64,000 nucleotides of DNA from Pseudomonadota bacterium (GCA_039700805.1 JBCAZE010000003.1:1552-65551), one strand, 5' to 3'. Shown: positions 10,986-52,139, numbered from the stretch's first letter. Numbers and translations: made by a program. Notes: generated by a model from the letters alone, not told the origin.

Positions 10986-11411
10986 ATGCTGATCAAGCAG
11001 CTCATAATCGGTTCGTCCATGGTGCTGGTCACTGCCAGCCTTCACGTCGTCGCCTTGTTTTTCCTTGCCGTCAGATCACGTCGTATGTTGATCGATTCAA
11101 CCTGGTCTGAAAACTATCTAAAACGGCTCGTCATTCTCTCGTTACTCGTTCTCGCCGTGGTTGCGATTCACTCCGTGGGTGTTTGGCTGTGGGCATTTTT
11201 CTATCTGGCAATCGGTGAGTTTTCTGAGTTTGGCCGCGCGCTATATTTTTCAGCAACCACAATTACGACGCTCGGCTACGGCGATATCACGCTATCTCCC
11301 GACTGGCAGTTGACCAGCACCTTCGAGGCATTAAGCGGGCTCATCCTAATCGGTGTCAGCACCGCCTTCATGTTCGAGATGATGCGCCATGTCTTGGACG
11401 ATGCGACTTGA
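10986..11411 (+). CDS. Small two-TM potassium channel
   Basis: Selectivity filter TTLGYGD within SATTITTLGYGDITL, flanked by TM helices. Confidence 0.8.
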   Translation: MLIKQLIIGSSMVLVTASLHVVALFFLAVRSRRMLIDSTWSENYLKRLVILSLLVLAVVAIHSVGVWLWAFFYLAIGEFSEFGRALYFSATTITTLGYGDITLSPDWQLTSTFEALSGLILIGVSTAFMFEMMRHVLDDAT

Positions 11412-11461
11412 GGCCGACAACGATCAACACGATGTTGGTTGCAACGAACAACAGTGTCGCG

Positions 11462-37440: not shown

Positions 37441-38823
37441 TCATACGTGGGCTTGCAACCGTGCCCTGATGTCGTCGAACGTGTCGTCAATCAACAACTC
37501 ACCATCGCGGAACACGGGTCTCAGCAAGTTCCCACCCGCCGGCGCATCCGCTTCGCGCACTGTCATAAAGGCGCCTTTTGACGCGACCAATGCGAGCCGA
37601 CCGCGTTTGGAACGTTTCCCTTTGTCCGTGACGGGATCCTTGTAGACATCCGACCATTGTCCATCGACGCGAATGGCGGAGGCTTTCATTGCGAACTTCA
37701 TCGTGTCGCGATTGACGTTTTGCAGGAGTTCGCCGCCCATACCAAAAGCGACGTTGTCCGCACTGAACCGATGAATCTTCATGACCGCCAGGATCTGCCG
37801 AATTTGTGCGGGACTGATGCCGTCGCCTTGTATCACGCGAACGTAGTCGGGCAAAACGAGATAGCCTTTGCTGTTTTCGCGATAGCCGAATCGGTCCATC
37901 AGTTTTCGGATCGACTCACAGACAATGTCAGCCGGATCACCGCTGTCCGGACGGATGACGACAGTGCCACCGTTGTTGATGACGGCGTCTTTGAGTTCGC
38001 CACCCCACAAGTGCTCGATGGCGTGAAACAGATCATACGAATCGCTAACGATGGCGACCGTCTTCTCTGGACCAGCGAATTGCTGCAACATGTTGCGATA
38101 CGCATCGAGCTCTCGTTCCTGGCCCCAGCAGGTGATGGTGGAGTGTTCTGCAGCGGGTATCGAGAAACCCGGCATTTCAGCAGCGTAGTACCGACGTAAG
38201 GCAGTGATACCGTTGATGGTATCTGTACCCATGAACGAAAGTAGGTGAGCGGCACCGCCAGCCTCAGCAGACTCCATAGAGCTCACACCACGAGCACCGA
38301 AATCGTGAAGTTTGAACTCAATGCCGTCCAGCGAATCAGCCGTCTCCAACATAGCTCGCTTGATCGTCTCCCGACACTCGAACGATCGCGTCGCTATCGT
38401 GGTGGGATACCAGATCGCGCGTAACATCGCGGTTTCGATATAACTCGTTAACCATGGCACGGCAGGGTCAGTGTTTCTCACTTGGACCATGACGTTGGAC
38501 ACAGGCATACGCGTTCCCTCGGGTACCGCCTCGACTTCTAACGGCAGTCGCCCACCATGGGCATCGAGAATATGCAGCCATCCGGCGCGATTAAACGGCA
38601 GACCATGAGCGCTTAACACCGCCTCGGCTTCCTCAATGTGCTCGCGAGTGATGGGCTGAGATAAGTAGCGCTTCAGGAACATCTGCAAACCGAAGAAAAC
38701 ACTCTCTTCGTACTCACCACCTCGAGATTCGATGTAGCTGGAGACAAATTCCGCACCCGGCGGATATTGCAGATAGTGCGACGCCTTGTAGGAATCAATA
38801 TTTAGGATTGGATTGATCATCAC
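37441..38823 (-). CDS. nadV: Nicotinamide phosphoribosyltransferase
   Basis: N-terminus NPILNIDSYKASHYLQYPPG, with the overall NAMPT pattern as I recall it. Upstream partner is nadM. Confidence 0.9.
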   Translation of the reverse strand: MMINPILNIDSYKASHYLQYPPGAEFVSSYIESRGGEYEESVFFGLQMFLKRYLSQPITREHIEEAEAVLSAHGLPFNRAGWLHILDAHGGRLPLEVEAVPEGTRMPVSNVMVQVRNTDPAVPWLTSYIETAMLRAIWYPTTIATRSFECRETIKRAMLETADSLDGIEFKLHDFGARGVSSMESAEAGGAAHLLSFMGTDTINGITALRRYYAAEMPGFSIPAAEHSTITCWGQERELDAYRNMLQQFAGPEKTVAIVSDSYDLFHAIEHLWGGELKDAVINNGGTVVIRPDSGDPADIVCESIRKLMDRFGYRENSKGYLVLPDYVRVIQGDGISPAQIRQILAVMKIHRFSADNVAFGMGGELLQNVNRDTMKFAMKASAIRVDGQWSDVYKDPVTDKGKRSKRGRLALVASKGAFMTVREADAPAGGNLLRPVFRDGELLIDDTFDDIRARLQAHV

Positions 38824-38883
38824 TGGAGCTCCTCCTGTGAAAAAGAGAATGCGGGTCTTTCCTGCATTCTTGTGATGCCCTGA

Positions 38884-39960
38884 TCAGACTGTTTGTCCGA
38901 TCATGGACTGAATAATGAAATAGTGATCCTCGAACATCCGTTGCGGATCCAGTGCAGCTAGCGGCACCCAAAATGCACGGCGTGCATCATCCCCGCCCTG
39001 GACTTTGGGCAAGCTGGGTTCGGCGCGCAGCTGAATGTGAAAGGCATGTGTCACCGTGCGACCTCGCGCCGAGCGATGCGGATCATCGAACACCGATTGA
39101 TTGACAATCGAGCCGGCGAGCACAGGCGCAGGCACCTTGATACGGGTTTCTTCTTTGAGCTCACGGAGCATCGATTCGACGATCGACTCATCAGAAGACA
39201 AAAACCCGCCCGGCAGCGCCCACTGGCCTTTTCCGGGTCTTGCGCGTCGCTCGACTAAGAGGATATGCCCGGATTGCACAACCAATGCGTCCACCGTCAC
39301 GAACATCGGCTCATAGGGCGCAGCGTTCCACTGCGCCCGATACTTGGTGACGAAGTCGAATTCATCGCGAAGCTCTGCAAACGCATCACTGCGGGTGTAG
39401 CTGTCGAGAAACGCGAGCACCTCTGGTGGTACGGTGTCTGCCACATTGGCAGCGACAGAGACTCGCGCGTCTTCCCATTCGCCTTTGTCCGATTGAAAAA
39501 TCGCCTGGCGAACCTCGGTCGCAGACACGTCGGCTAAGCCGGGGACATCAACCGAGGACCAATTCGGGAACAGTGATAGGTAGTATGAGGAATGGTCCTT
39601 TGCGTGGCCGATCAAACCGATTTTCGGATCACGGTGCGGCTGTGTGTGTCTCGCAGCCACAATCCCCTGCACACTTTTTTGTACATTGGCGAGCCATAGG
39701 TCATCGTTGTATGTCGCATCCATGATTGGCGCGATGAAGACCCGTGCATTGTCCTCATCGCCGAGCGTGGCACGAATCATGCGCTCGCGCTCATCGAACG
39801 ACCAAGGATTGCGAACACACGGCGGCCGGTGAGACGAGCCAACAAGTAGGATTACATTGGCGGATTCTTGCAGCGCTCGAGCGACGACACGTGCATGACC
39901 GTTATGGAAAGGCTGAAAACGGCCGATGAAGACCAGGAAGTCATATTGCTTTGTAGACAC
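38884..39960 (-). CDS. nadM: Bifunctional NMN adenylyltransferase / Nudix ADP-ribose pyrophosphatase
   Basis: FIGRFQPFHNGH nucleotidyltransferase motif. C-terminal Nudix box GGFLSSDESIVESMLRELKEETRI. Confidence 0.9.
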   Translation of the reverse strand: MSTKQYDFLVFIGRFQPFHNGHARVVARALQESANVILLVGSSHRPPCVRNPWSFDERERMIRATLGDEDNARVFIAPIMDATYNDDLWLANVQKSVQGIVAARHTQPHRDPKIGLIGHAKDHSSYYLSLFPNWSSVDVPGLADVSATEVRQAIFQSDKGEWEDARVSVAANVADTVPPEVLAFLDSYTRSDAFAELRDEFDFVTKYRAQWNAAPYEPMFVTVDALVVQSGHILLVERRARPGKGQWALPGGFLSSDESIVESMLRELKEETRIKVPAPVLAGSIVNQSVFDDPHRSARGRTVTHAFHIQLRAEPSLPKVQGGDDARRAFWVPLAALDPQRMFEDHYFIIQSMIGQTV

Positions 39961-40007
39961 AGTAAACTCCTTACTGCGAGGCGCGGTGGGATCTGTTACC
40001 GTTGCGC

Positions 40008-40032
40008 TAGTGGTGTATAATTTACACTACTA
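40008..40032. promoter_or_regulatory. Candidate NrtR operator in the nadM/nrtR divergent intergenic region
   Basis: Imperfect palindrome TAGTgGTGTAtaatTTACACtACTA (arms GTGTA/TACAC and TAGT/ACTA), located between the two divergent starts. Confidence 0.45.
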
Positions 40033-40040
40033 AAATATTT

Positions 40041-40703
40041 TTGCAAGATCCGAGAAGCCAATTGGTTGAATATCCCTTTCCAAGACCCGCTGTCACCGTT
40101 GATACGATTGTGTTTCGCGTGACGGACGCCGTGCTCGAGGTATTGCTGATTCGGCGAGACGCCTCACCTTTCGCTGGCAGTTGGGCACTACCTGGTGGCT
40201 TCGTGCATGAGGATGAACCGCTCGAGGCCACAGCGGCGCGGGTTCTCGGCGAGAAGGCCGGCGTTACGACCTATCATCTTGAACAACTCGGCACATTCGG
40301 TGCACCCGATCGGGATCCACGAGATCGTGTCATCAGTGTCGCTTATTTCGCCATCATCAATGGTGATCCTGCGGTGGACAAGAACGCGGAGTGGTTCTCT
40401 GTCGACGACGTTCCGCCCACTGCCTTTGACCATGACCATATTATCGCCACGGCAATACAGCGTCTTCGCAGCAAATTGACGTACACCCGCATCGGCTTCG
40501 CGTTTGTGCCCGATGTATTCACGCTGCCACAACTGCAAAGGACATGGGAGGCCGTGCTTAAAGCGCCGCTTGATAAACGTAATTTCAGAAAAATGGTCAT
40601 GGCGGACGGTCAAGTGATCGCCACCGGAGAAAAAACCCGTGGTGGCGCTCACCCGCCCGCGATGCTCTATCGGACGATACAACCGATCCGCGAAACCCAG
40701 TAG
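40041..40703 (+). CDS. nrtR: Nudix-related transcriptional regulator NrtR
   Basis: Degenerate Nudix box LPGGFVHEDEPLEATAARVLGEKAGV. C-terminal winged-helix motif FTLPQLQRTWEAVLKAPLDKRNFRKMV. TTG start is uncertain (alternative TTG at 40062). Confidence 0.85.
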   Translation: MQDPRSQLVEYPFPRPAVTVDTIVFRVTDAVLEVLLIRRDASPFAGSWALPGGFVHEDEPLEATAARVLGEKAGVTTYHLEQLGTFGAPDRDPRDRVISVAYFAIINGDPAVDKNAEWFSVDDVPPTAFDHDHIIATAIQRLRSKLTYTRIGFAFVPDVFTLPQLQRTWEAVLKAPLDKRNFRKMVMADGQVIATGEKTRGGAHPPAMLYRTIQPIRETQ

Positions 40704-40707: not shown

Positions 40708-41370
40708 TTAGAACCGGTACCCGAAACCAACACTCAGTGTCAGCGGATCATAATCACTGGTTACCGTGCGCGAGGTGTCATCGGGAAACTCGAGCTCAAC
40801 ATCAGACGCCACGAGATAGCGTAGACCCGCATCGGCGAACCAGCGCTCACCGAACAGATAACGAACGCCCGCCTGCAGTTGCACGGCAATATCGTCAGTT
40901 TCGAAAGACGTTTCGATGCCGGCATCTTCAAAATCAACATCGATTTCCTGGATGAACGCCAAACCGGCGCCAACGTATGGACTGAGATTGGGGTTCGCTG
41001 GCAGCTCGAAGTCGTAGAGCACACTCGCCGCAATCGACAGGGAGGCGAAGTCACCTTCGGCGAAAGTGCCAAGCCCATCCAAAGTGACGGAACCATCCTG
41101 CTCATTACGACGGTACATCAGCTCAGCTTCCGCTCGCCAATTCGGGCCAAAGTCGTAGCCTATGGTGCCACCCGCTGCAAAAGCCGCATCGAACTGGCGG
41201 TCCGTACTCGATGTCACTGCCTCATCACGATACGTCGCAGATTGGTCACCAAGCAGGTTAAGGCCCGCGACAGCACTGGCGTAAAACCCCGTGTCATCTG
41301 CCTGTACAGAGGGTATCGATAGCGGTAGCGCAGCAACTAAAGCGAGCGAAAAGGTCGTTTTGGATCTCAT
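40708..41370 (-). CDS. Outer-membrane beta-barrel protein (OmpA-like/OmpW-like small barrel)
   Basis: Signal peptide MRSKTTFSLALVAALPLSIPSVQA. Alternating beta-strand pattern. C-terminal LSVGFGYRF. ATG 41370 with GGAG upstream. The longer track ORF to 42099 is rejected. Confidence 0.75.
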   Translation of the reverse strand: MRSKTTFSLALVAALPLSIPSVQADDTGFYASAVAGLNLLGDQSATYRDEAVTSSTDRQFDAAFAAGGTIGYDFGPNWRAEAELMYRRNEQDGSVTLDGLGTFAEGDFASLSIAASVLYDFELPANPNLSPYVGAGLAFIQEIDVDFEDAGIETSFETDDIAVQLQAGVRYLFGERWFADAGLRYLVASDVELEFPDDTSRTVTSDYDPLTLSVGFGYRF

Positions 41371-41563
41371 GAGGGTACTCCTAACCGGATAACTAAAAAA
41401 TGAACGAACAACGCGGATTTCGGCGATTTTCCAGCCCTGGATCTCGATTTTCGGCGCTTTTGTACGAACGGTACCGTTGATGAACGAACGGTCACCGCCA
41501 GCCATTGCCGGCACCGATGGTCGGGAGCGCAATGATCGGTGCTGCGACTTGTATAATCCCGCT

Positions 41564-42391
41564 ATGCCCGAACTCGCCGAACCATCGCGCCGATTTTTGC
41601 TCCGATTAGTGTTGTCCTGGGCTGGACTCTCGTTGCTCTTCGCCGCCCTCGCGCCTGCTAGCTCCGCACCGTTGAGCGGCTTAATGCGACTCGTGTTCTG
41701 GTCGCTGCATATCGGATTCGGACTCGCTTGTGCGACCGGCGCAGCGATCCTGTTTGTTCGAAACACAGCGCTGCCACGAGACTGGCGTTTGATCAGCCTG
41801 TCGGCTCTCGGGGGTGTCGTCCTGTTCGCGCCCGCAGCGGTCATGCTTGAGTCGCTGTTTCCAGCGATATCGGCACAGCCGCCAGATGATCCGTTCGATG
41901 TCTGGGCGGCCAAAAGCCTCTTCCGAACCGTCGTAGCGGAGGCATTGGCCGTAGCGCCGTCCTTCATACCCGCATGGATGTTGATCAATCTCGATGCGCT
42001 GGTGGGTTCGCCGTCAACCAAAAGTACGACCGATGAATCACAGCAAGAGCGATCTATCACGCTGCCATTTGCGTTGCCGAGTGCGGTCGGTGACAACATT
42101 GTCGCGATCAGTTCTGATTTGCATTACCTACACGTCTACACCACCAAGGGTAAGGCGATGGTACTCGGCTCGCTTAGTCAGGCGATGGACGCATTAGGCG
42201 ACGAGGGTATTCAGATTCATCGCAGTCACTGGATAGCGACCGCGCACGTCAAGCGACTCAAGAAGACGACCAAGACGTGGCAGGTGGAGATGAGCAATCA
42301 AATGTTGTTTGACATTAGTCGTAGAAAAAGAAGCTGGGTCGTCGAGCAACTCGGCACCGACTTTGAAGTATTTGCAAACCCACAGGTTTGA
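41564..42391 (+). CDS. Membrane protein with C-terminal LytTR DNA-binding domain
   Basis: Four to five TM segments, then a LytTR-like IVAISSDLHYLHVYTTKGKAMVLGSLSQAMDAL...IQIHRSHWIA. Start is uncertain (41477 or 41564). Confidence 0.7.
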   Translation: MPELAEPSRRFLLRLVLSWAGLSLLFAALAPASSAPLSGLMRLVFWSLHIGFGLACATGAAILFVRNTALPRDWRLISLSALGGVVLFAPAAVMLESLFPAISAQPPDDPFDVWAAKSLFRTVVAEALAVAPSFIPAWMLINLDALVGSPSTKSTTDESQQERSITLPFALPSAVGDNIVAISSDLHYLHVYTTKGKAMVLGSLSQAMDALGDEGIQIHRSHWIATAHVKRLKKTTKTWQVEMSNQMLFDISRRKRSWVVEQLGTDFEVFANPQV

Positions 42392-42415: not shown

Positions 42416-42445
42416 AAAAAAAAAGGGCACCTAATCGGTGCCCTT
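42416..42445 (-). terminator. Rho-independent terminator (strong on the minus strand)
   Basis: A9-GGGCACC-taatc-GGTGCCC. The minus strand reads the hairpin followed by nine T. The stop codon of the small minus-strand ORF lies in the loop. Confidence 0.7.
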
Positions 42446-42757
42446 GATGTTGGCTACTGGATATAGCCGGTTTGCAATACGCGCGATACCTTCGGTTTCC
42501 AGTACACGCAGCACTTCATCGAGATTCTTGTAGACGTGTCCACATTCATCCAACGGTGTGCGGCGTGTGTTGCCGACAATCCCTTTCACCTCGACACCGC
42601 CGAGCGTTCGGGTAATCGTCCGCATTTCATCGTCGATCTCATCATGGATGTCAGCGAGCTCCTGCTTCTCTCAGCTGCGCACGAAGCTCAGCGGGTTTCA
42701 TCTGCGCCTGCTCCCGGGCGGAACGAATGCGCGATGCGATGTTGGAGGGCTCTGCCA
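42431..42757 (-). pseudogene. Small gene apparently split by a frameshift (37-codon 5' ORF plus 64-codon 3' ORF); function unknown
   Basis: ATG 42757 opens MAEPSNIASRIRSAREQAQMKPAELRAQLREAGAR*. Another frame is open from just after a TGA: EKQELADIHDEIDDE-MRTITRTLGGVEVKG...NIKGTD*. The two frames overlap by about 17 nt. Confidence 0.35.
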
Positions 42758-42986
42758 TGAGAAACCTAGCGACTTTGGTGTGCGTGACTATACCATTCAC
42801 GACGGTGATGTTTACCGTCACTGCAGTCGTTTGAGAAAAGGCGAATCACAGCCGACACAAGCTTGTAAGAACGCTTGCTAACACTGCATACATCGTCAGT
42901 GGCGTGTCACGTACAACTGTCGGCGTCTCCATGGTTCGTCTGATCACCGATAACACCCCGTATCGCAACGATGGGATAAATTTGCC

Positions 42987-43724
42987 ATGCATGGCAGTCT
43001 CATATCGCACACGTGCCGATGCAGGGATGACACTGACATGCGTAGACAGGCCGCTTTGAAAATGGAATATAGGGGCGAGCACGAAGCAAAGACTCGGCTG
43101 GTTACCATCATTCCAACGAGACTGTACCGAGACAGTGTCGACAGCGCGCTACGCGACAATAACGCGATTGAGCTCGCCGCAAGCTATTCCGACTGGCAGA
43201 CAGCAGTAACCGTGTTGGATTCACTCAGACCCGACATTCTTGTGACAGATATTCCAACGAGCGATTCGCTGTTGTTGTTGGAGCATCTTCAAGCGAAAGA
43301 CTGTCGTCCACGCGTTCTTTGTTTGTCCGCGCCAACGAACCTTGACGAAATTCTTGCTTTAACAGCGGCGGGGGTTTCTGGTTTTGCGTCTGCCAATGGT
43401 CGATTCGACGACCTAATTTTCTCTATCGATAGTGTCGCGAATGGAAAGTTTGCTTGCGATGGCACTGTTGCAACTGCGCTTGCACAGCATGTCGCACGCG
43501 ACGCAAGTTTAGATACCGCCAGCACACCCATCACACTGACGGCACGAGAACAGCAGGTTGTCCGGTGTATTGCACTGGGTCACGCGAACAAGACCATCGC
43601 GCATCAATTGTGCATCAGCGTCTCTACCGTCAAACATCATGTGCACAACTCACTTGAGAAACTCGGCGCGAGGAATCGTACAGAAGCTGCTGTCATCGCG
43701 AGAAACCTCGGCTTCGCAGACTAG
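42987..43724 (+). CDS. LuxR/FixJ-type regulator with degenerate receiver domain
   Basis: C-terminal HTH: LTAREQQVVRCIALGHANKTIAHQLCISVSTVKHHVHNSLEKLGARNRTEAA. The N-terminal REC-like fold lacks the acidic DD pocket (VTIIPTRLYRDS). Start is uncertain (42987, 43038 or 43062). Confidence 0.8.
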   Translation: MHGSLISHTCRCRDDTDMRRQAALKMEYRGEHEAKTRLVTIIPTRLYRDSVDSALRDNNAIELAASYSDWQTAVTVLDSLRPDILVTDIPTSDSLLLLEHLQAKDCRPRVLCLSAPTNLDEILALTAAGVSGFASANGRFDDLIFSIDSVANGKFACDGTVATALAQHVARDASLDTASTPITLTAREQQVVRCIALGHANKTIAHQLCISVSTVKHHVHNSLEKLGARNRTEAAVIARNLGFAD

Positions 43725-43860
43725 TCCGATCGATCTAGATCCACCGATCGACCATCACCGACCTTGCGGTTAGCGGCCTATAGGTCTCGCTCTCGACCTT
43801 TGATCGATACCGTCCTTTTCAAGCGGGGAGCAAACTGCTCTCAACGAAAAGGAGAACGTG

Positions 43861-44220
43861 ATGACGAAGATTCGCGTGCACATTTCCGGCCTTCCGGCCC
43901 TGATAACACAAAACCTCGAAGATGCGATTTCGAATGCGAGCGACATGCTATTGCTCTCGCCCGAGCGTGCTGTACGAGATCGAGAGATCGACGTGTTAAT
44001 CACCGCCGAGCAAGAACATGACAAAAGAGCTTTTGCGGATGTGATGTCAAAACCGAATCGTGGGCTGATTGTTCTGCCAGCCGATGCATTGCATATGACA
44101 CGGTATCAACTTCAGCTGGTTAGCTCCGAAATTCGAGAGCCAAGCACTGACGACATTCTAAGCACGATTCGTCACATGTATCAGCAATCAAACCAACCAC
44201 TCGGCAACACCGGAGCGTAG
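43861..44220 (+). CDS. Hypothetical 119-aa protein, receiver-like (beta-alpha)5 pattern without acidic pocket
   Basis: GGAGA lies 5 nt upstream of ATG 43861. Alternating hydrophobic strand / amphipathic helix pattern: KIRVHISG, DMLLL, DVLIT, GLIVLP, LQLVS. Confidence 0.65.
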   Translation: MTKIRVHISGLPALITQNLEDAISNASDMLLLSPERAVRDREIDVLITAEQEHDKRAFADVMSKPNRGLIVLPADALHMTRYQLQLVSSEIREPSTDDILSTIRHMYQQSNQPLGNTGA

Positions 44221-44224
44221 TCGC

Positions 44225-45037
44225 ATGAGTATGATCCCAACACACATCAAGCACACCCGATTCCCGGCAGTCAGACTAGCAATGACGGATGCTGGCGCGA
44301 GCCTCACTGACGAAGCCCTTTCCGTGCACCTCAACGAGCTCTTTCCAGAGTCCAATCCTGAGGAGGTGGAGAACCTCATGCGGTCGCTCAGCAAGTTTGG
44401 TAAGAGCCTTGCACCCGTCGTTCGGCAAGTAGGCCCGCTACTCCAACGCGCTGCCCCAGGTGCCATTCAAGGGGCAATGACCGGCATGGTCGCAGGCCCG
44501 AAGGGTGCATTGGTTGGCGCAGGAATCGGCGCGGTCACATCGCTGTTGGCGCAGCCATCGGCAAACCCAGCGGCCTCACGAGCACCGCAACAGGTAGCAC
44601 CACCGCCAACACCTGTCCCGCAACAGCCGCTACCAGCGCGACAATCTTCACCGCCGATGCCTTATACAACGATGCCGGCACCGGCCGCGATGAATGCGAA
44701 TGGTCGCGCTGCTGTTACTCAGTTACTCGCGCTGCTTTCACGGCCGGAAACAATGCAAGCGTTGTCCGCCTTACTGATGGGTGCATCGGGCCGTCAACAA
44801 GTTCGCGTTGGCGCAAGGCAAGCACCCGTCGCGGCATTTGCGAACGCCATTTCGGAATATGCCGCAGAGATTGTTGAGCAAGCTGATCCGGTTGATCTCA
44901 TTGATGACGAAACGCTAACAGCGCTGACCGAGTCAGGTGTCGATGTTGCCAGCCCCTCGAGCCGGGCCGATGCACTGCTGACGGAACTGCTCGACGGTGC
45001 TTTGATCAACCACGGTCTCCCATCAAATACGCACTAA
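44225..45037 (+). CDS. Hypothetical 270-aa protein with glycine-zipper segment and Pro/Ala/Gln-rich linker
   Basis: Lies 4 nt after the previous stop. GAIQGAMTGMVAGPKGALVGAGIGAVTSLLA (aa 78-109), then PQQVAPPPTPVPQQPLPARQSSPPMPYTTMPAP. Confidence 0.65.
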   Translation: MSMIPTHIKHTRFPAVRLAMTDAGASLTDEALSVHLNELFPESNPEEVENLMRSLSKFGKSLAPVVRQVGPLLQRAAPGAIQGAMTGMVAGPKGALVGAGIGAVTSLLAQPSANPAASRAPQQVAPPPTPVPQQPLPARQSSPPMPYTTMPAPAAMNANGRAAVTQLLALLSRPETMQALSALLMGASGRQQVRVGARQAPVAAFANAISEYAAEIVEQADPVDLIDDETLTALTESGVDVASPSSRADALLTELLDGALINHGLPSNTH

Positions 45038-45050
45038 AGAAGGAACACTC

Positions 45051-45536
45051 ATGCAAACCCAGAACACCAATGAGGCCAATGTCGCCAACGAGAACCTGAT
45101 GCAACAAGTGCTAGCCGCTGTGCAACAGAACCCGCAGCTCGCAACACTGGTCGGCAATTTCGCGGCCCAGTATCTGGAACCAGGAGTCACCCGAAATTTG
45201 GCCGATATTTTTGGTGCAGCGGATCAATCGGACCGGACAACGGTCGATGCAGAGTTCTACGACGACTTCGATAGCCGAGAGCCCATCGAAGAAGAACTGG
45301 ATTCGCACGGGGTGCCGTCAACGGAGACAGAGGCGCTGGATATTTTCATGGAGGCTTTTGGTCTTTGCCCGACTTGTCTGACGGAGGCGCATTGCCGGAA
45401 TTGTGAGAATGGCGAACTTCCACCAGAGCCTAACGAACCACTGCTGTTGGAACTGCTGCTACCGGTGCTTCCAAAGCTAACGCTGCCTAGTCGCCGACGG
45501 ATTTTCTCTGCGCTAAAAGGCCGCCCTCAGATTTAG
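45051..45536 (+). CDS. Hypothetical 161-aa acidic protein with CxxC-x5-CxxC motif
   Basis: GAAGGA SD sequence upstream. C106-P-T-C109 ... C115-R-N-C118. Confidence 0.65.
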   Translation: MQTQNTNEANVANENLMQQVLAAVQQNPQLATLVGNFAAQYLEPGVTRNLADIFGAADQSDRTTVDAEFYDDFDSREPIEEELDSHGVPSTETEALDIFMEAFGLCPTCLTEAHCRNCENGELPPEPNEPLLLELLLPVLPKLTLPSRRRIFSALKGRPQI

Positions 45537-45592
45537 ATCATCACTTTCGATGACAACCAAGAGCACACAGCTCAAACCATAAGGAGAACCCC

Positions 45593-46363
45593 ATGGACGA
45601 CTTTGACCATGACTTTGAGTCCGATGATATCGAGATGGAAGAAGGCATCAGCGACTATGTCGATGATGGCGATGACGACTTGGAATACGAGCCCTATGAA
45701 ATGACGGGCGATGATGATTTAGAAGACCCCGAAGAGAGCATCGACATCGACGACACTCTGTATTCAATGATGGACGAGAGTACTGGCGAAAACGGCGAGT
45801 ATCCGGAGCTCGTTGGCTACGGTATCGCAAAACTAATCGAACGGCGCAAAAAGAAGAAGCGTGCTGAAAAGCGGCGACGTGAATTGATGAAACGCCAAGT
45901 GAAACGCGCCAAAACAGCAAGCAAAGTGCGCAAAGGCACATTGTCTGCGATCAACCGTCAACTAAAAGCTAACTCACGCGGCATTCGCACGAACACCAAC
46001 AGTCTTCGTCGTGTTAACAAGTCCCTGATTAGTACTAGTCGGCGCGTCAGCGGTTTGTCGTCGAGTGTTTCGAAAGCGCACGCCGTAAATCGAGTGCAGT
46101 CTAAGCGTCTTGCGAAGAACACCAAGATCTTGAAAATCGACGGTGCCTTGGATCTTGCCCGTGGCGTAACGTTGACGCGTACTGACAACGGCATCGATGT
46201 CGATGTCGATTTCACGTCGTTGATTCAAGGTGCTGTTAAAAACGAGTGGATCGGTAAGGGCAAGGGCTTCATCAGCAGTCCCACTGGACTGGGTGCGCTC
46301 GGGTTCCTCGCACAAAACTACCAAGCCATTCTTCCGGCGGGTCGCAATATCCACCTGAAGTAA
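45593..46363 (+). CDS. Hypothetical 256-aa protein: hyper-acidic N-terminus followed by a poly-basic segment
   Basis: AAGGAGA SD sequence upstream. Residues 1-75 are dominated by D/E. Residues 84-114 read RRKKKKRAEKRRRELMKRQVKRAKTASKVRK. Confidence 0.7.
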   Translation: MDDFDHDFESDDIEMEEGISDYVDDGDDDLEYEPYEMTGDDDLEDPEESIDIDDTLYSMMDESTGENGEYPELVGYGIAKLIERRKKKKRAEKRRRELMKRQVKRAKTASKVRKGTLSAINRQLKANSRGIRTNTNSLRRVNKSLISTSRRVSGLSSSVSKAHAVNRVQSKRLAKNTKILKIDGALDLARGVTLTRTDNGIDVDVDFTSLIQGAVKNEWIGKGKGFISSPTGLGALGFLAQNYQAILPAGRNIHLK

Positions 46364-46390
46364 CAAGGTCACCAGGCAAGGAGTTTTGAG

Positions 46391-47029
46391 ATGAAGATTC
46401 ATATCCCTACCACAGCCGCGTCCACGGCCGCCCCTGTTACAGGGGCGGTGCGTCAACCAAATCGAAAGGTCCGACTATTCTCATTTGGTGGGACAGGTAA
46501 CGCAGCCGCAAAACCTACCGCCAATACAGAAGATTCGAACTTGGCGTTGGTATGTTTTGCCGTTGCTGCTGCAGAGGATCCGAAGGAAGCGGAGAAACAA
46601 GACAAGCAGTTCCGCAATGACTCTGGCAAGTTTTTCAGCAGCGCGAAGTTCGATGAGCAGGAGGTCGGAGATTTCCTCGACCACCTAGCGCTCATCGAAC
46701 AAAGAGCAGACGTTGATATCACGCCGGATGCATTCGAAACCCGCATCGCGAACACACTATCTGTGTCACCGATGCTGGTCGCTGCAGCACGGCGACGTCT
46801 TGCGAAGATGTCAGACTCTGAACGAGGCAAGATGGTCAAAAGTCTTGTCAGCTTCGCATGCAGCATGACGGATGAAGAACAGGCGCGAAAAGTGATCCTG
46901 TACGGCTTTAATCGCGACAGGCTGGAACTCGCCAATCGCACACCCAAAGCCGAGCGAACGCTGGACGAGCGGGTTCGCGATAACGCGGATCGAATCGAGA
47001 TGCTAGAAAATAGCGTCGCGTCGCCCTGA
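46391..47029 (+). CDS. Hypothetical 212-aa protein
   Basis: AAGGAG SD sequence upstream. Tight spacing within the operon. No family recognised. Confidence 0.65.
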   Translation: MKIHIPTTAASTAAPVTGAVRQPNRKVRLFSFGGTGNAAAKPTANTEDSNLALVCFAVAAAEDPKEAEKQDKQFRNDSGKFFSSAKFDEQEVGDFLDHLALIEQRADVDITPDAFETRIANTLSVSPMLVAAARRRLAKMSDSERGKMVKSLVSFACSMTDEEQARKVILYGFNRDRLELANRTPKAERTLDERVRDNADRIEMLENSVASP

Positions 47030-47042
47030 CGGCTGGCAAACC

Positions 47043-50000
47043 ATGACATCAATACGGTCATATCCTGCGCTCAACGAGGCTGTCCAAGCGGGCAGTGACG
47101 ATGATCGTATTGGTGTCATCGGTCATCTTCGAGATGCGAGCGAGCTGCCGACCGGTGTTCGCATCATCACCCAATTCGGAGACGTTGCAACGCTGCGCCT
47201 GCAGCGAAACCAACTCAATGCACTCTGCGAAAGTGATGCCTGCCACAACATCGAAGCATCACGGCGTATTCGAATCCCTTTCGACGAGTCGAGCATGGAA
47301 TCTGAGGAGACACGAATCGACGCGTCGACAAATCCAGTCGTCTCAGTACGACGACCGCCTGGTGTCGCAGAGACCGGGCATGGCGTTGTGATCGGCATTA
47401 TCGACTGGGGCCTTGATATCGCTCATCCCGCATTCCTCAAAGATGGTCGTACTCGCGTACGCGCGTTATGGGATCAACGGGGCACTCAGCGGGAGGAAAA
47501 TCGCTGGGGTTACGGGAGAATTTATGATCGAGCGGAGATCAATGCGGCGCTCGAAACCAGTAATCCCTACGACGCCCTCGATTATCAGCCGTGGCTGTCT
47601 GATCGAGACAACACAGGATCTCATGGTACACATGTCGCGAGTATTGCAGCTGGCGGGGTCTATCCTGGCGGCGAACCCGGCGTTGCGCCAGGAGCGGAGA
47701 TTGTTTTCGTGCACTTGGCACGAACACCGAATGTACTGGCAGCCGGAGACCTTGGCGACTCTGTCTCGGTGCTTGAGGCATTGGATTTTATTTACGAAGT
47801 CGCAGGCGACAAGCCCGTCGTCGTCAACTTGAGCGTAGGCGCCCATAGCGGCAACCATACTGGTCGCTCATTGGTGGAACGCGGCATCGATCAGTCGGTC
47901 TGGCTACAACCAGGACGCTCGGTCGTTAATAGTGCTGGCAACTACCGCCAAAAGGCCGCTCATGCATCGGGCCGTCTGAAAGCACCAGCGGTCGCGACAC
48001 TACCTTTCGTGATCCCATCAGACGATCTTAATAACAGCGAAATTGAAGTCTTCTACCGCGACACTGACCTTTTCGACGTTGTGGTCGTTGCGCCGGATGG
48101 GACAACTCACGGACCGGTATCGAAAGGTGATGATTTAGCAATCGAGATTGACGATCGCAAAGTCGGGCACCTCTACCATGAGCATGAGCCGCAGCATGGT
48201 GACCATCATATCGACTTGTTTTTGTACAGCGAAGCGGCGCCCGGTCAATGGGCGCTACAACTAAAAGCAAGCAAAGTCATCGATGGGCGTTATCACGCAT
48301 GGATCGAACGAGACTCCAGCAAGCAGCCGTTTTTTCGAGGCCCACTGGTCGATTCGCGAACAACGATCGGAACACTAGCCAATGGCGAGTTTAGTATTAC
48401 AGTCGGTGCCTATGACGCACACCTCGCACATCAACCGATAGGCGAGTTCTCTTCGAGTGGACCGACCCGAACCGGCGCCATCAAACCGGAGCTAGTCGCA
48501 CCCGGCGTCAAGGTCGCAGCAGCGCGATCTACAAACCCAGGCAGACAGGACACAGATCTCACCACAGTGAAATCCGGGACCAGCATGGCAGCACCGTATG
48601 TTGCTGGGAGCGTCGCGTTGATGTTCGAAGCCTGCAAGCGACCAATGGAAATCACAGAGACGCGTGCCCTGCTGCTGAGTGAACTTCGCGGCGCGGGACG
48701 TTGCCAACATGACGCTTGCCGTAAACATGACGTTCATACCGTCGGGTATGGCTATCTCGATCTTGATCGATTGATGCGTCTCGTAAAACACAGGGAAGAA
48801 CTTATGGATGACCACTATCACACCGAATCCACCGATTCGGTTGCCCCATTGGATCTGCCGGTACCGGTACTCGAGCTCTCGGAAGACGCACCAGAATGGG
48901 CGCCTGAGGATGAAGACAGAAAGGACGTTGACCTACCACTCGAGTCAGAACCGTTCTCAGACGGTGTAATCGACGCTGCGGAAAGTAGTGGGTCGATAAA
49001 CACGCGACTGGAGATGCCGAGATGCGAAACTGGCTGCCAACGAGCACCGGCATCAGGCGATGTCTTAGTCCGAAGGAATGTTGCGGAGGGTGTCGATTAT
49101 CGCGCCGTTATGATCACGGACCCGCAACCCAACATCAACGCGACAGCGATTGACGAAATCGTCGAGTCTCGAGGAAGCGGCTGGTACGCGCGAGTGATTG
49201 AGAAAAAACTGGGGTCGGATTTAGCACGCTACGCAATCCGTAAAGTCATGAACGCCGACGGCTCTCCTATTCGGGGACAAAAGATCTTACCGGTCACGAC
49301 TGATATTGACGAGCACATGCCATCCGATGATTGCGATTCGGCGTTCGTGGAAGCGCTACCCAATCTCAGCGCCTGGCAACACCTCATCAGTTTTAGACCG
49401 CCCGTCGGCGTACAACGGTCTCTAGTCCGTTCTTACGCGCCAGATTGGTCGGTTCATAAGATCGAAGATGCGCACGGTGACATCAACCTCGACTACTACC
49501 CGATTCGGGTGGTTCGGCTGCCACGCGTCGGCGGTCGCACAATCTCGGCCCAAGAGCTGCTGCGTATGCTGCGCCTTAACATCGATGGCTTTATCGACAC
49601 GCGTATCTCCAGCTTCCGGCCCTACAATCGCGCTTCCGCGAGACGTTGGCGATCATCAACTCCGGTTGGCAGTGTTCTGCACATCGATATGAAAACTGCG
49701 GGTGGCTATTTGAATCCCGATGATGGCTCTGTCGTTTGTGCTCGCGCCACGGCGAGTGATTGGATTTTCTCGACAATTTGGACGCCGGCGGATTTCGGCC
49801 ACCCAGTCAGTGGAAACCGGCAATTCGGTTTCACGCAGCAAAACGGAGAGTGGATTTTCTACACCCGAGGGGCTGATAGAACCACCGGTCGTGTTGACTC
49901 ATTAATGTCTGGCACCGTCTTCTCCAAAGCAGACGATCTCTGGCGAAGCCTTCAGCGCGGCCTCACCGATTTCATCAATACCAATGGTGGTGCAGCGGTC

Positions 50001-50081
50001 TACTTGAGCCGAACAAGCAGGCGTTACAACTGGCCAGCAGTAAAGAGCAGTTACTGGCGCCCCAGCACGCGATGGATTTGA
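47043..50081 (+). CDS. S8 (subtilisin-family) serine peptidase, no signal peptide, with ~450-aa C-terminal extension
   Basis: Catalytic Asp121 (VIGIIDWGLD), His194 (GSHGTHVASIAAGG), oxyanion Asn (VVNLSVGA) and Ser514 (SGTSMAAPYVAGS). Acidic linker at aa ~600-650. Unknown domains to aa 1012. Confidence 0.9.
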   Translation: MTSIRSYPALNEAVQAGSDDDRIGVIGHLRDASELPTGVRIITQFGDVATLRLQRNQLNALCESDACHNIEASRRIRIPFDESSMESEETRIDASTNPVVSVRRPPGVAETGHGVVIGIIDWGLDIAHPAFLKDGRTRVRALWDQRGTQREENRWGYGRIYDRAEINAALETSNPYDALDYQPWLSDRDNTGSHGTHVASIAAGGVYPGGEPGVAPGAEIVFVHLARTPNVLAAGDLGDSVSVLEALDFIYEVAGDKPVVVNLSVGAHSGNHTGRSLVERGIDQSVWLQPGRSVVNSAGNYRQKAAHASGRLKAPAVATLPFVIPSDDLNNSEIEVFYRDTDLFDVVVVAPDGTTHGPVSKGDDLAIEIDDRKVGHLYHEHEPQHGDHHIDLFLYSEAAPGQWALQLKASKVIDGRYHAWIERDSSKQPFFRGPLVDSRTTIGTLANGEFSITVGAYDAHLAHQPIGEFSSSGPTRTGAIKPELVAPGVKVAAARSTNPGRQDTDLTTVKSGTSMAAPYVAGSVALMFEACKRPMEITETRALLLSELRGAGRCQHDACRKHDVHTVGYGYLDLDRLMRLVKHREELMDDHYHTESTDSVAPLDLPVPVLELSEDAPEWAPEDEDRKDVDLPLESEPFSDGVIDAAESSGSINTRLEMPRCETGCQRAPASGDVLVRRNVAEGVDYRAVMITDPQPNINATAIDEIVESRGSGWYARVIEKKLGSDLARYAIRKVMNADGSPIRGQKILPVTTDIDEHMPSDDCDSAFVEALPNLSAWQHLISFRPPVGVQRSLVRSYAPDWSVHKIEDAHGDINLDYYPIRVVRLPRVGGRTISAQELLRMLRLNIDGFIDTRISSFRPYNRASARRWRSSTPVGSVLHIDMKTAGGYLNPDDGSVVCARATASDWIFSTIWTPADFGHPVSGNRQFGFTQQNGEWIFYTRGADRTTGRVDSLMSGTVFSKADDLWRSLQRGLTDFINTNGGAAVYLSRTSRRYNWPAVKSSYWRPSTRWI

Positions 50082-50094
50082 AGGAGTACACACC

Positions 50095-51342
50095 ATGACA
50101 ACACCGATCATCATCGTGCCGGGCATTATGGGCACGCGACTCGTTGACTCACGCGGTCGGCGACTCTGGGACCCCAATGCAGATATGTCCCGACAGAACA
50201 TCATCAGATTGTTGGCCAATCCGGCTGCTGCCGGTGTCGAAGTAGGATTTCGGACGCGATTCTTGCGTCTCGGAACCACTGCCATCCCGAGCACAAGAGC
50301 ACGCGCCAGCTTAACTCAGCTTTTTCGGCAGCGTGGCATCGTCAACGGCGGTAATCTTGTTTGGGAGGGCGGCTACGACAAACTTGTGAAGGGGCTGTCG
50401 GATCCTGCGTTCAATACCAGTTGTGGTGGCGGCACTAAACTCTACGCCGCGGGGTACGACTGGCGACAGAGCAATAGCACTTCGGCAAATCGCCTGAAGT
50501 CTGTTGTCGAACGCGCGATGCGTGAGACCGGCTCGAGCGATGTCATCCTAGTGGCGCACAGTATGGGTGGACATGTCGCGCGTTGGTTCTGCAAGCACGC
50601 AACAATCAACGGAACCCGCGGCCACCGTTTTGTCAGACATCTTTTCCTTCTTGGCAGCCCGATACATGGTGCGAGTAAGGCGTATCGCGCACTCCGACAA
50701 TCCTTCGTGACAGCGGATACGATCGCGGACATTGCCTTGCCGCAACACGTCGATACTTATGACGATTCTGTCGTCGACTTAGCCGGCCGCGCTGTATCCT
50801 CACTCGTGAAGGTGATCCCCTCTGTGTATGAGCTGTTGCCAACACGAGCGTTTTGCAACGCCAATCCAAATTGGCTTCGATTTAACACAAGCCTTGCAGG
50901 TATTGCGGATGCTTCCAATCCAAGTCGGTTGTATAGCAATCGACACACTGGCCTGACAACAAACGGCGTTACCAATACGCTTGTCACCGCTTTTCTGGCA
51001 GGCCGCGATGTCTTTGATCGTTATCTTGGTACTTACCTGCCGGCGCAAACCACAGTCGTCTATAGCGATAGTGAACCCACAGAGACGGTTATGCGAATCG
51101 AATCGAACGGGAGCCTTGCGAGAGCCGGCGGTCGACGACTAAACCTAGGTGACGGCACCGTCCCTACTTACTCGGCCAGCGCACAAGGAAATGGCAACCA
51201 GAACATCCCAAGACTTGCGATTCGTGGCGTCGACCATGTCGGTGTCGCCAATCATCCGTTCGCAGTCAGACGAATCCAACAGCTCGTTGCCGCACAATGC
51301 GTGCGCCGACAAACCGCCGACGGCTGGAGGGCCGCGTTATGA
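50095..51342 (+). CDS. LCAT/PGAP1-like alpha/beta-hydrolase (putative phospholipase/acyltransferase), no signal peptide
   Basis: IIIVPGIMGTRL, YDWRQS, nucleophile elbow AHS156MGG, GDGTVP and VDHVG motifs. AAGGAG SD sequence upstream. Confidence 0.8.
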   Translation: MTTPIIIVPGIMGTRLVDSRGRRLWDPNADMSRQNIIRLLANPAAAGVEVGFRTRFLRLGTTAIPSTRARASLTQLFRQRGIVNGGNLVWEGGYDKLVKGLSDPAFNTSCGGGTKLYAAGYDWRQSNSTSANRLKSVVERAMRETGSSDVILVAHSMGGHVARWFCKHATINGTRGHRFVRHLFLLGSPIHGASKAYRALRQSFVTADTIADIALPQHVDTYDDSVVDLAGRAVSSLVKVIPSVYELLPTRAFCNANPNWLRFNTSLAGIADASNPSRLYSNRHTGLTTNGVTNTLVTAFLAGRDVFDRYLGTYLPAQTTVVYSDSEPTETVMRIESNGSLARAGGRRLNLGDGTVPTYSASAQGNGNQNIPRLAIRGVDHVGVANHPFAVRRIQQLVAAQCVRRQTADGWRAAL

Positions 51343-52139
51343 ACACGGTAATAGAGGCACCTAGACTTGCCGATGCGCCGCTGGACGAGCGAGCGACTTG
51401 TCGCTTCAACCTATTAGATCCATATGCAGACGGTGTTGGTGAGTACCACATCAACACGCATGTTGTTTACTTTCGACCGCCGGGGAACACCTCTCCACAG
51501 GCGATGACACGCGCGTTGTTCAACATGTTCCCGACGGTCTTCAATCCAAATAACGTCGCTGTCGTACAGCAAAGCACTTGTCGCTTTCAAAACAAAGGGA
51601 CGCTCAAGTTCACCGGCAAGGTTCCCGCTCTACCAGATCTCCACGATGACTGGGTGGCGACGGAATGGCGCGGCAGTAACTTCCGAGCACAGACCTTGGA
51701 GCGACGATGGCTCGAACGTTGGGAAGTGGCGGCGCTGGCTGCCAGAGTGCCTTTACCCGGGTTTCCAGGCCTTCCTGTTGGACTCGCGCTGCCGATCAAT
51801 AGACGCCATTTCCTTGCCGGCGTGAGATCCTGGCATGTTGGGCAAATGCCGAGTCGCGGTCTGTACTTTCTAGAAACTGCAGCGTTCGAGCGCTACTCAC
51901 ACCGCGCCTTCATCGCGGCGGCACCCATGATCAACATTCGCGCACAGATCCTAGAAACATGGACCAAACTGCTGGAGAACTTCTTGTTAAGCATCAACGC
52001 CACAGCAGTCAATTTCACGCCACCAGGCTATCAAATCAATCGCGCGATTCGCTATCAACGTGCCAGCGCACAAAACCCATCTCAGTTACGAGCGACACCA
52101 TGGTTCGCGGGGCTGCTTTCGCGGCACAGCGGCCTGTAG
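51339..52139 (+). CDS. Hypothetical 266-aa protein, apparently paralogous to the C-terminal domain of the S8 peptidase
   Basis: ATGA overlap with the lipase stop, with GGAGG upstream. Similarity by eye to S8 aa ~810-990 (see findings). Confidence 0.7.
   Translation: MNTVIEAPRLADAPLDERATCRFNLLDPYADGVGEYHINTHVVYFRPPGNTSPQAMTRALFNMFPTVFNPNNVAVVQQSTCRFQNKGTLKFTGKVPALPDLHDDWVATEWRGSNFRAQTLERRWLERWEVAALAARVPLPGFPGLPVGLALPINRRHFLAGVRSWHVGQMPSRGLYFLETAAFERYSHRAFIAAAPMINIRAQILETWTKLLENFLLSINATAVNFTPPGYQINRAIRYQRASAQNPSQLRATPWFAGLLSRHSGL

Follow-up and report, generated by a model that had tools for sequence, protein, structure and literature searches.

Organization of the operon

The stretch of DNA analysed here (64,000 nucleotides, nt, from a Pseudomonadota bacterium; hereafter the window) contains at positions 42987–52139 an operon that encodes a regulator, an S8 protease, a predicted lipase and several proteins of no annotated family. 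This operon is one copy of a widespread conserved module whose marker gene is the third of its numbered genes, O3, and we infer that the module is a maker of envelope-attacking effectors. Listing of the open reading frames (ORFs) and recomputation of the gaps bore out the layout that a sequence-only reading of the window had proposed: nine ORFs, all on the + strand and with unchanged coordinates, comprise the regulator and O1 to O8. The regulator gene and O1 are 136 nt apart, the following gaps measure 4, 13, 56, 27, 13 and 13 nt, and O7 and O8 share an ATGA overlap (51339–51342). GGAG-type Shine–Dalgarno sites, also noted in that reading, lie 5′ of O1 (AAGGAGA), O2 (about 11 nt upstream), O3, O4, O5, O7 and O8; inspection of the upstream regions of O1–O8 gave no obvious site before O6. 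The codon-position GC of O1–O8 is the same as that of the neighbouring housekeeping genes, so that the ORFs at 43861–47029, whose coding signal had been made a point to check, are typical of genes in this respect.

Pfam matches within the operon were confined to GerE together with a weak receiver, Peptidase_S8 and LCAT/PGAP1, a glycine zipper in O2 staying below threshold. Scans of all products with PADLOC, NCBIfam and PHROG yielded nothing specific beyond the S8 protease, the lipase and the helix–turn–helix (HTH) domain, and for O1–O5 and O8 nothing rose above threshold in these three libraries or in Pfam. The earlier claim that six of the proteins belong to no recognizable family thus holds with respect to library matches but has to be amended, as O2–O5 belong to large families lacking annotation. 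No NTPase, nuclease or known sensor occurs among the operon products, in line with the same reading, and no system model of PADLOC-DB v2 fits the gene set; the matches obtained there were a generic 'subtilase' hidden Markov model (HMM; E 4e-25), weak IetS matches, HTH-only matches and a marginal CARF model for O5 (E 0.032).

A conserved module marked by O3

The O3 gene (45051–45536) encodes an acidic protein of 161 amino acids (aa) with a CxxC-x5-CxxC zinc ribbon, Cys106–Cys118 (nt 45366–45404), the four cysteines of which are invariant in two alignments of the family. An exhaustive profile search collected 1,301 clusters at 50% identity with E<=1e-3, or 1,202 with E<=1e-10. Fifteen O3-family proteins were checked; none contained a Pfam domain, and each source name given was 'hypothetical protein'.

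A metagenome scan anchored on O3 produced 100 loci confirmed by tblastn, of which 80 were kept. An S8 gene was present in 33 of these, and in 29 it belonged to the same subfamily as O6 and stood 3′ of O3, with E values down to 1e-248; most of the remaining loci lay on contigs of insufficient length to decide. The order was reproduced in Streptomyces sp. SID13031 and two long contigs, for which genes had been called independently and Pfam assignments were precomputed. The order of the module reads: activator, O2-like glycine-zipper protein, O3, acidic/basic protein with a Gly- or Met-rich tail, small protein, Csp-like S8 protease. It was found in alpha-, beta- and gammaproteobacteria, in a Streptomyces and in the 80 metagenome contigs.

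The closest counterparts of the operon were met in Simiduia litorea and Microbulbifer sp. TYP-18. Their clusters start with a BTAD regulator, an O2-like protein (274/284 aa), a protein of 172/171 aa, an O4-like protein (216/202 aa) and a protein of 228/217 aa, and end with S8 (750/783 aa), LCAT (398/395 aa) and an O8-like protein (299/304 aa), while the genomic flanks of the two clusters differ. BLAST supported orthology for O2, O4, S8 (aa 8–740), the lipase and O8. O3 was only weakly similar to its positional counterparts, with which it shares the CxxC...CxxC pattern.

A second set of relatives emerged from a genome scan with an alignment of 65 sequences of the C-terminal domain ('tip') of O6, which returned 80 genome loci. 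S8 proteins fused to this START-like tip were encoded in three of them, from Thiobacillus, a Pseudomonadota metagenome-assembled genome (MAG) and Caulobacterales, with S8 parts 37–41% identical to O6. Each fusion gene is preceded on the + strand by genes for an Ala/Pro-rich O2-like protein, an O3 homolog, an acidic, coiled-coil, Met-rich protein and a protein of about 115–120 aa. The O3 HMM matched the gene 5′ of S8 in Thiobacillus (L013) with E 2e-13, and six-frame ORFs of L013, L014 and the Caulobacterales locus L018 with E 4e-12 to 8e-10; a sigma-54 activator heads both L013 and L014.

This census answered the question, raised with the sequence-only reading, whether the genes co-occur beyond very close relatives: the gene order recurs in unrelated taxa, which strengthens the case for a functional unit. 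HMMs for LCAT, O8 and START gave no matches in the 80 O3-anchored metagenome loci, and the combination of lipase, O8 and START domain therefore appears specific to the lineage of the window. We found no description of the module in the searchable literature, which could be covered only incompletely, but only analogues; the module is apparently undescribed so far.

Regulator, O1 and accessory proteins

The regulator (42987–43724; 245 aa) matched GerE (PF00196, E 8e-17) in Pfam and reached 23.5 bits with Response_reg, for which the cut-off is 30.2; the residues 'IIPTR' stand where a receiver would usually carry its acidic pair after β-1. Its best NCBIfam similarity was to NarL, far below the equivalog cut-off, MadR also being among the best matches, and Autoind_bind did not match. 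The regulator is of the NarL/FixJ type, combining a weak receiver with a GerE/LuxR HTH, and is no autoinducer-binding LuxR protein. Its designation as an 'orphan' LuxR had to be abandoned, as it is no quorum-sensing solo and the cluster extends beyond close relatives. We presume that it is the dedicated activator of the operon. Related modules carry a LuxR-type, a sigma-54 enhancer-binding protein (EBP) or a BTAD activator at its place, and upstream of the module we counted sigma-54 EBPs in at least seven loci, LuxR-type activators in at least three and BTAD activators in at least four. At loci of the sigma-54-regulated type (L090, L091, L132, L140–L142), a winged-helix-looking protein of 89–117 aa with the motif ILAYLAKNPDAQDTLDGIVEWW precedes the O2-like gene and may be an extra regulator of the module.

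O1 (43861–44220; 119 aa) is a small receiver-like protein that we assign to the module tentatively. BLAST found no counterpart in the Simiduia or Microbulbifer clusters. The protein is weakly similar (phmmer E 0.008, pairwise BLAST 1e-4) to a small protein encoded just 5′ of the O2-like gene in L122, and much more weakly (E 0.98) to one in L163; both are metagenome loci with a LuxR-type gene nearby.

O2 (44225–45037; 270 aa) consists of an N-terminal region with a glycine zipper at aa 75–108 (nt 44447–44548), a Pro/Gln/Ala-rich linker and an acidic C-terminal part. The zipper scored 20.8 bits with Gly-zipper_YMGG, below the Pfam threshold. Orthologs in Simiduia and Microbulbifer are 34–49% identical over the aligned stretches (E 2e-22 and 4e-20). 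With a three-sequence HMM, 52 of the 80 metagenome loci proved to contain an O2-like gene, and in the longer, annotated contigs this gene stands directly 5′ of the zinc-ribbon O3 gene.

O4 (45593–46363; 256 aa) begins with a strongly acidic N-terminus, which is followed by a poly-basic stretch, a coiled-coil-like middle and a Gly-rich hydrophobic C-terminal tail; its orthologs in Simiduia and Microbulbifer were found with E 3e-12 and 1e-15. The same plan characterizes the O4 slot elsewhere: 18 of 20 proteins possess an acidic N-terminus (net charge down to –29 in 60 aa), a basic or coiled-coil-like middle and a hydrophobic tail rich in Gly and often in Met, and a poly-Arg/Lys run often lies between acidic block and tail. 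O5 (46391–47029; 212 aa) corresponds to its Simiduia and Microbulbifer counterparts by position and by weak similarity, sharing the MKIxIP N-terminus and a C-terminal coiled coil. Its family HMM matched the same slot in L135, L165, L167 and L168 (E 1e-17 to 1e-23), and in most loci the slot is filled by a gene of 110–275 aa. At L170 (10219–10794), the fourth accessory slot bears a PASTA domain. PASTA domains are normally extracytoplasmic and bind peptidoglycan; this case is a hint of possible extracytoplasmic action by the slot-4 protein.

The S8 protease and its exchangeable C-terminus

O6 (47043–50081; 1012 aa) can be divided into three parts. An N-terminal part (aa 1–593, 47043..48821) comprises a prodomain-like region and a Csp-like S8 subtilase; a middle part (aa 594–774, 48822..49364) contains an acidic linker and a short stretch also present in the Microbulbifer S8 protein; and the tip (aa 775–1012, 49365..50078) is a START-like helix-grip domain by prediction. 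Peptidase_S8 (PF00082) matched with 113 bits (cut-off 21.8). Among solved structures, aa 111–593 are closest to CspB (PDB 4I0W, E 8e-35), with which D121, H194, the oxyanion residue N300 and S514 align in subtilase order, placing the Asp, His and Ser already picked out by the sequence-only reading in register with the CspB catalytic residues. The DWG, HGTH, GNY and GTSMAAP contexts are kept in 28 of 28 aligned S8 proteins of the module, with single-residue variations. The protease has an intact catalytic site and is probably active. In NCBIfam, O6 came nearest to the Csp germination proteases, scoring 133.5 bits with CspBA (cut-off 1250) and 118.9 with CspC (cut-off 675). Judged from these scores it is a relative of CspB, CspBA and CspC and not an ortholog.

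The BLAST match of O6 extends to aa 740 in the Microbulbifer S8 protein and to aa 635 in that of Simiduia, and the middle region (aa 594–774) had no family match in Pfam. The shortest S8 protein of the module has 640 aa, and the longest exceeds 2,770 aa. Their C-terminal extensions elsewhere include Peptidase_M15_4 (VanY-like), GH25 muramidase, PG_binding_1, OmpA and DUF2272, and a constant N-terminal part (E to 1e-248) is thereby combined with variable tips, as in polymorphic toxins. The gene that follows S8 varies as well: it encodes a patatin, a PG_binding–OmpA–phospholipase D protein, an M23–PG_binding–DUF2272 protein or DUF2272 alone, and among less clearly related genes an amine oxidase or an S9 peptidase. 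Domains directed at peptidoglycan or membranes replace one another both at the S8 C-terminus and in the following gene, a repertoire typical of envelope-targeting effectors.

The START-like tip

A search with aa 600–1012 of O6 retrieved 208 homologs, all of which matched only aa 775–1012 (35–58% identity). Their sources include Acidimicrobiia, Cyanobacteria, Caballeronia, Rhizobium and Nocardioides. Many are stand-alone proteins of 250–300 aa, and most have no signal peptide; in others the domain follows Amidase_3, C92/NlpC-P60, Peptidase_C70, LCAT, OmpA or PG_binding. The 65-sequence alignment exhibits invariant D, Y, H, G, R, D, R and W columns and the motif HPVSGNRxFG.

A model of the tip, which spans about 240 aa, was computed with AlphaFold2 (AF2) at pLDDT 91.8. 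A Foldseek search of the PDB related it to PYL, Bet v 1, CoxG and aromatase–cyclase folds (E about 3e-5, target-normalised TM score 0.54–0.68). For both the tip and O8, the top 50 PDB matches comprised PYL, Bet v 1, CoxG, aromatase/cyclase and hydroxynitrile lyase structures with a probability of about 1.0, so that both models are consistent with a helix-grip fold. Neither protein matched a START, Polyketide_cyc or SRPBCC family in Pfam or NCBIfam, and a PDB sequence search with the tip profile gave nothing at E<=1. Since the Simiduia and Microbulbifer S8 proteins lack the domain, the START-like tip is an add-on.

At 56 of the 80 genome loci, mostly from Bacteroidota, a same-strand gene of 85–188 aa lies no more than 150 nt downstream of the tip gene, and in 54 of these 56 the small product has 2–6 (mostly 3–5) hydrophobic segments. 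Some loci hold, in addition, orphan tip fragments with further small membrane genes. Clustering of the neighbours at the 80 loci revealed no single conserved partner except these small membrane genes. About one third of the long tip-bearing proteins start with a lipobox. This layout resembles that of a toxin with a membrane immunity protein, and we regard the START-like domain, which is strongly conserved between phyla, as a candidate lipid-directed toxin or targeting module. No relatives of the tip or of O3 were detected in the viral contigs scanned.

Three further observations concern the contexts in which the tip occurs. At L021–L088, mostly Bacteroidota, START-like tips are borne by highly variable lipoproteins of 350–3375 aa. 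A second recurrent set of unknown genes (clusters c29, c10, c11, c39 and c12, with no Pfam match) lies 5′ of C92- or C70-START proteins in L009 (Caballeronia arationis), L017 (Phaeobacter sp.) and L040 (a Saprospiraceae MAG); the same operon includes a phage-lysozyme protein in L009 and an S8 protein in L040, and the set may represent another uncharacterised effector operon. In L007 (Nocardioides gansuensis, 2113–9599), a Peptidase_C70-START protein follows a second C70 protein, an FAD-binding protein, a STAND-like AAA/TPR/GerE regulator and a TIR-domain protein, and with SIR2, DUF87 and DUF488 genes in the vicinity the setting is defence-island-like.

The predicted lipase O7 and its neighbour O8

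O7 (50095–51342; 415 aa) scored 52.9 bits with PF02450 (cut-off 21) and 28 bits with PF07819 (cut-off 24.3) and contains the motifs YDWR, AHSMGG and GDGTVP. Its nucleophile elbow AHSMGG, a GxSxG motif, aligns with those of lipase A and lysosomal phospholipase A2 (LPLA2). These family matches and motifs agree with the assignment made in the sequence-only reading and mark O7 as a predicted LCAT/PGAP1-like alpha/beta-hydrolase and putative phospholipase. Orthologs at the same position in Simiduia and Microbulbifer are 47–51% identical.

O8 (51339–52139; 266 aa), which is translationally coupled to O7 through the ATGA overlap, is rare: a search of 5.8 billion proteins returned seven homologs, namely the exact MAG protein, two from Simiduia, one from Microbulbifer, two metagenomic sequences and a distant one from Chryseobacterium. 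An O8-like gene follows the lipase gene in Simiduia and Microbulbifer. The AF2 model of O8 (pLDDT 78.8) resembled PYL, Bet v 1 and hydroxynitrile lyase folds in the PDB (Foldseek E 2e-4). The suggestion that O8 and the S8 C-terminus carry paralogous domains holds for the shared START/Bet v 1/PYL fold, not for the sequences; a sequence paralogy of O8 with the S8 tip was rejected, as BLAST and profile–profile comparison (hhalign) found nothing and the fold alone is shared. One natural LCAT–START fusion, P0036, was encountered.

In L005 (Chryseobacterium sp. BIGb0232, 7159–12018), the O8 homolog (29% identity) is encoded after a 944-aa protein and before a BetR-type HTH protein. As this locus contains no S8 or lipase gene, the O8 family can pair with other partners. 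The 944-aa protein, for which no family was detected, had no sequence match in the PDB and was negative with the HMMs of all module parts.

Genomic setting

GC content is flat across the window, and no tRNA gene was found in it, as the sequence-only reading had remarked. Genes for NAMPT, NadM–Nudix, NrtR, an outer-membrane beta-barrel protein and LytTR flank the operon upstream; sulfatase, Nth, DoxX and LysE genes follow downstream. Recurrence in defence islands, which had been suggested as a setting to look for, does not apply to the window, whose flanks are housekeeping genes and no defence island. The hairpin that had been interpreted as a terminator bounding the + strand block lies at 42423–42445 with its T-run on the – strand and serves a small HTH-like gene of that strand as terminator, not a + strand gene. 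Two short – strand ORFs in different frames at 42431–42821 (MAEPSNIASRIRSAREQAQMKPAELRAQLREAGAR and MRTITRTL...NIKGTD, each ending in a stop) look like the halves of this frameshifted small HTH-type gene.

Just upstream, a NAD-salvage cluster (37441–40703) encodes a NAMPT-like phosphoribosyltransferase, a NadM-type adenylyltransferase–Nudix fusion and an NrtR regulator composed of Nudix and winged-helix domains. A 463-aa ORF on the – strand (40708–42099) overlaps the LytTR gene (41477–42391, + strand). The match to an outer-membrane beta-barrel/OmpW domain is confined to the C-terminal 210 aa or so, which begin with a signal peptide; the long ORF is therefore an over-extension.

Proposed function and alternatives

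The notion of a coherent, co-inherited unit of the conflict or effector type, put forward in the sequence-only reading, is upheld by the synteny in unrelated taxa and by the swapped envelope-directed domains. We favour the interpretation that the module is a polymorphic, protease-led, envelope-attacking effector system with S8 maturation, an exchangeable tip and an exchangeable next-gene enzyme, and give it an even chance of being correct. According to this model, a dedicated activator would switch on the four small accessory proteins O2–O5 and then the S8 protease. The conserved part of the protease would serve as a constant 'handle', the C-terminal tip of which is swapped between lineages, being a START-like lipid-binding helix-grip domain here and a peptidoglycan hydrolase or peptidoglycan-binding domain elsewhere. 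The next gene would contribute a second, exchangeable envelope enzyme, here the LCAT/PGAP1-like phospholipase with its START-fold partner O8. By analogy with cleavage in the polymorphic toxin system that is associated with an S8 peptidase (S8-PTS) and in Csp/SleC, proteolysis by S8 may mature the system, either by cutting the acidic linker of the protease itself and freeing the tip, or by removal of the acidic propiece of O4, or by both. O2, O4 and O5 could be membrane-active helpers that open a Sec-independent route to the envelope for the signal-less enzymes. O8 might inhibit or chaperone the lipase in the cytoplasm, or be its lipid-handling partner, a role that is supported by the ATGA coupling and by the LCAT–START fusion P0036. 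As to the target, an attack on other cells seems somewhat more likely than self-lysis.

Several observations weigh against this effector model. Neither the window nor the other proteobacterial S8 loci contain a recognisable immunity gene; O6 is followed by the lipase and O8 genes and not by the small variable gene expected of a polymorphic toxin, and the small membrane gene that accompanies many tips is absent from all 12 loci with tips closest to that of the window (L009–L020). Hydropathy and inspection of the N-termini agreed with the sequence-only reading that signal peptides are lacking: no 19-residue Kyte–Doolittle window exceeds 1.4 in any product of the operon, and none of its proteins has a signal-like N-terminus or a predicted transmembrane helix. 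Neither Pfam nor hydropathy revealed a secretion or trafficking marker (signal peptide, PAAR, LXG, RHS etc.), and delivery is hypothetical, as are S8 cleavage, its substrate and a lipid ligand of the tip. The lack of signal peptides is, however, equally compatible with export by another route. O4 and O5 are tied to the distant loci by position and composition, with no significant sequence scores; the O4-family HMM matched 16 and the O5-family HMM four of the 80 metagenome loci. The Simiduia ortholog of O2 scored 27.4 bits with DUF6861, below the Pfam threshold of 28; DUF6861 has been described as a glycine-zipper domain at the N-terminus of polymorphic toxins (bioRxiv 10.1101/2022.08.23.504947). 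START-like helix-grip tips, beside VanY-like and colicin-M-like ones, have been described in Lipobox/Cystatin-like lipoprotein toxins of Bacteroidota (Burroughs, Nicastro & Aravind 2025, PMC12419801). It could not be established that those tips and the present one belong to the same family, and the immunity proteins of those toxins are lipoprotein jelly-roll or BamE-like proteins, whereas the present tip loci continue with polytopic membrane proteins.

The same components might be turned on the producing cell. In a programmed lysis or abortive infection, which we consider unlikely, the activator would fire under stress or infection, O2 and O4 would be holin-like, and the S8 fusion, the hydrolases and the phospholipase would destroy the cell's own envelope, so that cell contents are released or a phage is stopped. 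A set of muramidase, amidase-type peptidase and phospholipase does resemble a lysis cassette, activators such as sigma-54 EBPs are of tightly controlled types, immunity gene and signal peptides are both missing, and one START-tip locus lies among TIR, SIR2 and STAND genes. No phage-sensing component or PADLOC system match was found, however, and the window flanks contain housekeeping genes and no defence island. Transcriptional induction would presumably be slow for abortive infection, the O2 and O4 segments are too weakly hydrophobic for a classical holin, and the Bacteroidota START-like tips, in a toxin plus membrane-protein layout with lipoprotein signals, point outward. A developmental role, in which the protease would activate linked lytic enzymes to remodel the producer's wall in the course of a transition involving cysts, stalks, hyphae or dormancy, is very unlikely in our judgement. 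Activation of pro-SleC by Csp is established in Clostridium germination, and the closest solved and curated S8 relatives are indeed the germination proteases CspB, CspC and CspBA. The fusion of S8 to PG_binding_1 and lytic domains follows the same logic, and BTAD/SARP regulators and the Streptomyces member would fit developmental control. The distribution is patchy, though, with flanks that differ between relatives; polymorphic tips and phospholipases are hallmarks of conflict, unlike conserved morphogenesis; signal peptides to reach the wall are lacking; and the hosts are mostly non-sporulating Proteobacteria.

Maturation of a bacteriocin-type peptide would assign the protease to O4: S8 would remove the acidic leader, as LanP or the S8-PTS peptidase does, and free a cationic Gly-/Met-rich membrane-active peptide, the fused lytic domains only aiding access to the target. 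The O4-slot architecture recurs in 18 of 20 loci although sequence identity is low, which speaks for this idea, as does the processing of toxin precursors at basic sites by S8 enzymes; S8-PTS cleavage in S. aureus frees a cationic helix. With 200–290 aa the O4-like proteins are nevertheless large for a peptide precursor, modification enzymes and an ABC exporter are absent, the O4 tail in the window is weakly hydrophobic, and cleavage of O4 by S8 is hypothetical. As a complete explanation we give this process a slim chance; it could be a component of the effector system. A juxtaposition of unrelated genes by chance, with some of O1–O5 spurious, has next to no probability. It would account for the low complexity of O1–O5, which have no database family, and for the absence of an O1 ortholog from the closest related clusters, but the synteny is kept across phyla and the census refutes chance for O2–O8, while O2, O3 and O4 are conserved at the protein level and the tight gaps, Shine–Dalgarno sites and gene-typical codon-position GC speak for real genes. 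Gasdermin-type, type VII secretion (T7SS)-mycosin and lanthipeptide-protease readings were also tried and rejected, as no gasdermin, Ecc/Esx or Lan genes occur in the cluster or its relatives.

The effector model can be extended by the proposal that O2–O5 constitute a hitherto unrecognised device, free of an ATPase and matured by a Csp-like protease, that would release or export folded envelope-lytic enzymes lacking signals, in diderm and monoderm bacteria alike. We regard this extension as quite unlikely; if it were true, a new protein-delivery route would be at hand beyond a new toxin family. Should the effector model itself be correct, a module with about 1,300 marker-protein clusters, present in metagenomes of soil, rhizosphere, freshwater and marine origin as well as in cultured Simiduia, Microbulbifer and Streptomyces, would have gone unannotated. 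It would represent a new architecture of antagonism or lysis, composed of a protease handle, swappable wall- or membrane-attacking tips and phospholipase partners. Four unknown protein families gain a testable context, and the question is raised by which route signal-less peptidoglycan hydrolases and lipases reach their substrates.

Comparison with known systems

The S8-PTS of Gram-positive bacteria/Firmicutes (Li, Tan & Zhang 2022, PMC9424270; Mwangi et al. 2026, PMC13556192), in which an S8 peptidase cleaves the toxin and, in S. aureus, frees a cationic helix, shares with the module the genetic coupling of a subtilase to polymorphic toxic cargo. There, proteolysis is the activating step and basic stretches are likely cleavage sites, to which the module can be likened. 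In an S8-PTS, however, S8 and toxin are separate proteins, both with signal peptides, and the toxin features include a BetaH domain and nuclease-type tips, with an immunity gene following. In the operon, by contrast, S8 is fused to the variable tip and has neither signal peptide nor BetaH domain, the tips are envelope-directed, four further conserved genes belong to the set, and an immunity gene was not seen. Measured against what defines an S8-PTS, namely a secreted S8 peptidase, a separate toxin with signal peptide and BetaH domain, and an immunity protein, the operon falls outside.

The Bacteroidota toxins of PMC12419801 and the present family are alike in the START-like helix-grip C-terminal tip, and many Bacteroidota members of the present family are lipoproteins, too; in the window the tip is carried by a signal-less S8 protein instead of a lipoprotein.

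Csp/SleC of Clostridia supplies the closest S8 relatives and the example of a protease functionally linked to peptidoglycan-lytic enzymes. The module differs in that its hosts are non-sporulating, its lytic domains are fused and polymorphic, and phospholipases and four unknown proteins are included.

The type VI effector sets that Russell et al. are said to have described in 2013 comprise Tae/Tge peptidoglycan hydrolases and the phospholipases Tle1–5, including PGAP1-like Tle4 and PLD-type Tle5. Type VI effectors and the module present the same repertoire without Sec signals: amidase/muramidase, PGAP1/LCAT-like lipase, patatin and phospholipase D. Unlike type VI loci, the annotated parts of the window and the related loci contain no genes of a type VI secretion system (T6SS), no PAAR, VgrG or MIX markers and no periplasmic immunity genes. 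The module, which is no S8-PTS and departs from polymorphic toxins in immunity and secretion, is nonetheless kin to the polymorphic toxin/effector systems with processing peptidases (sensu Zhang et al. 2012).

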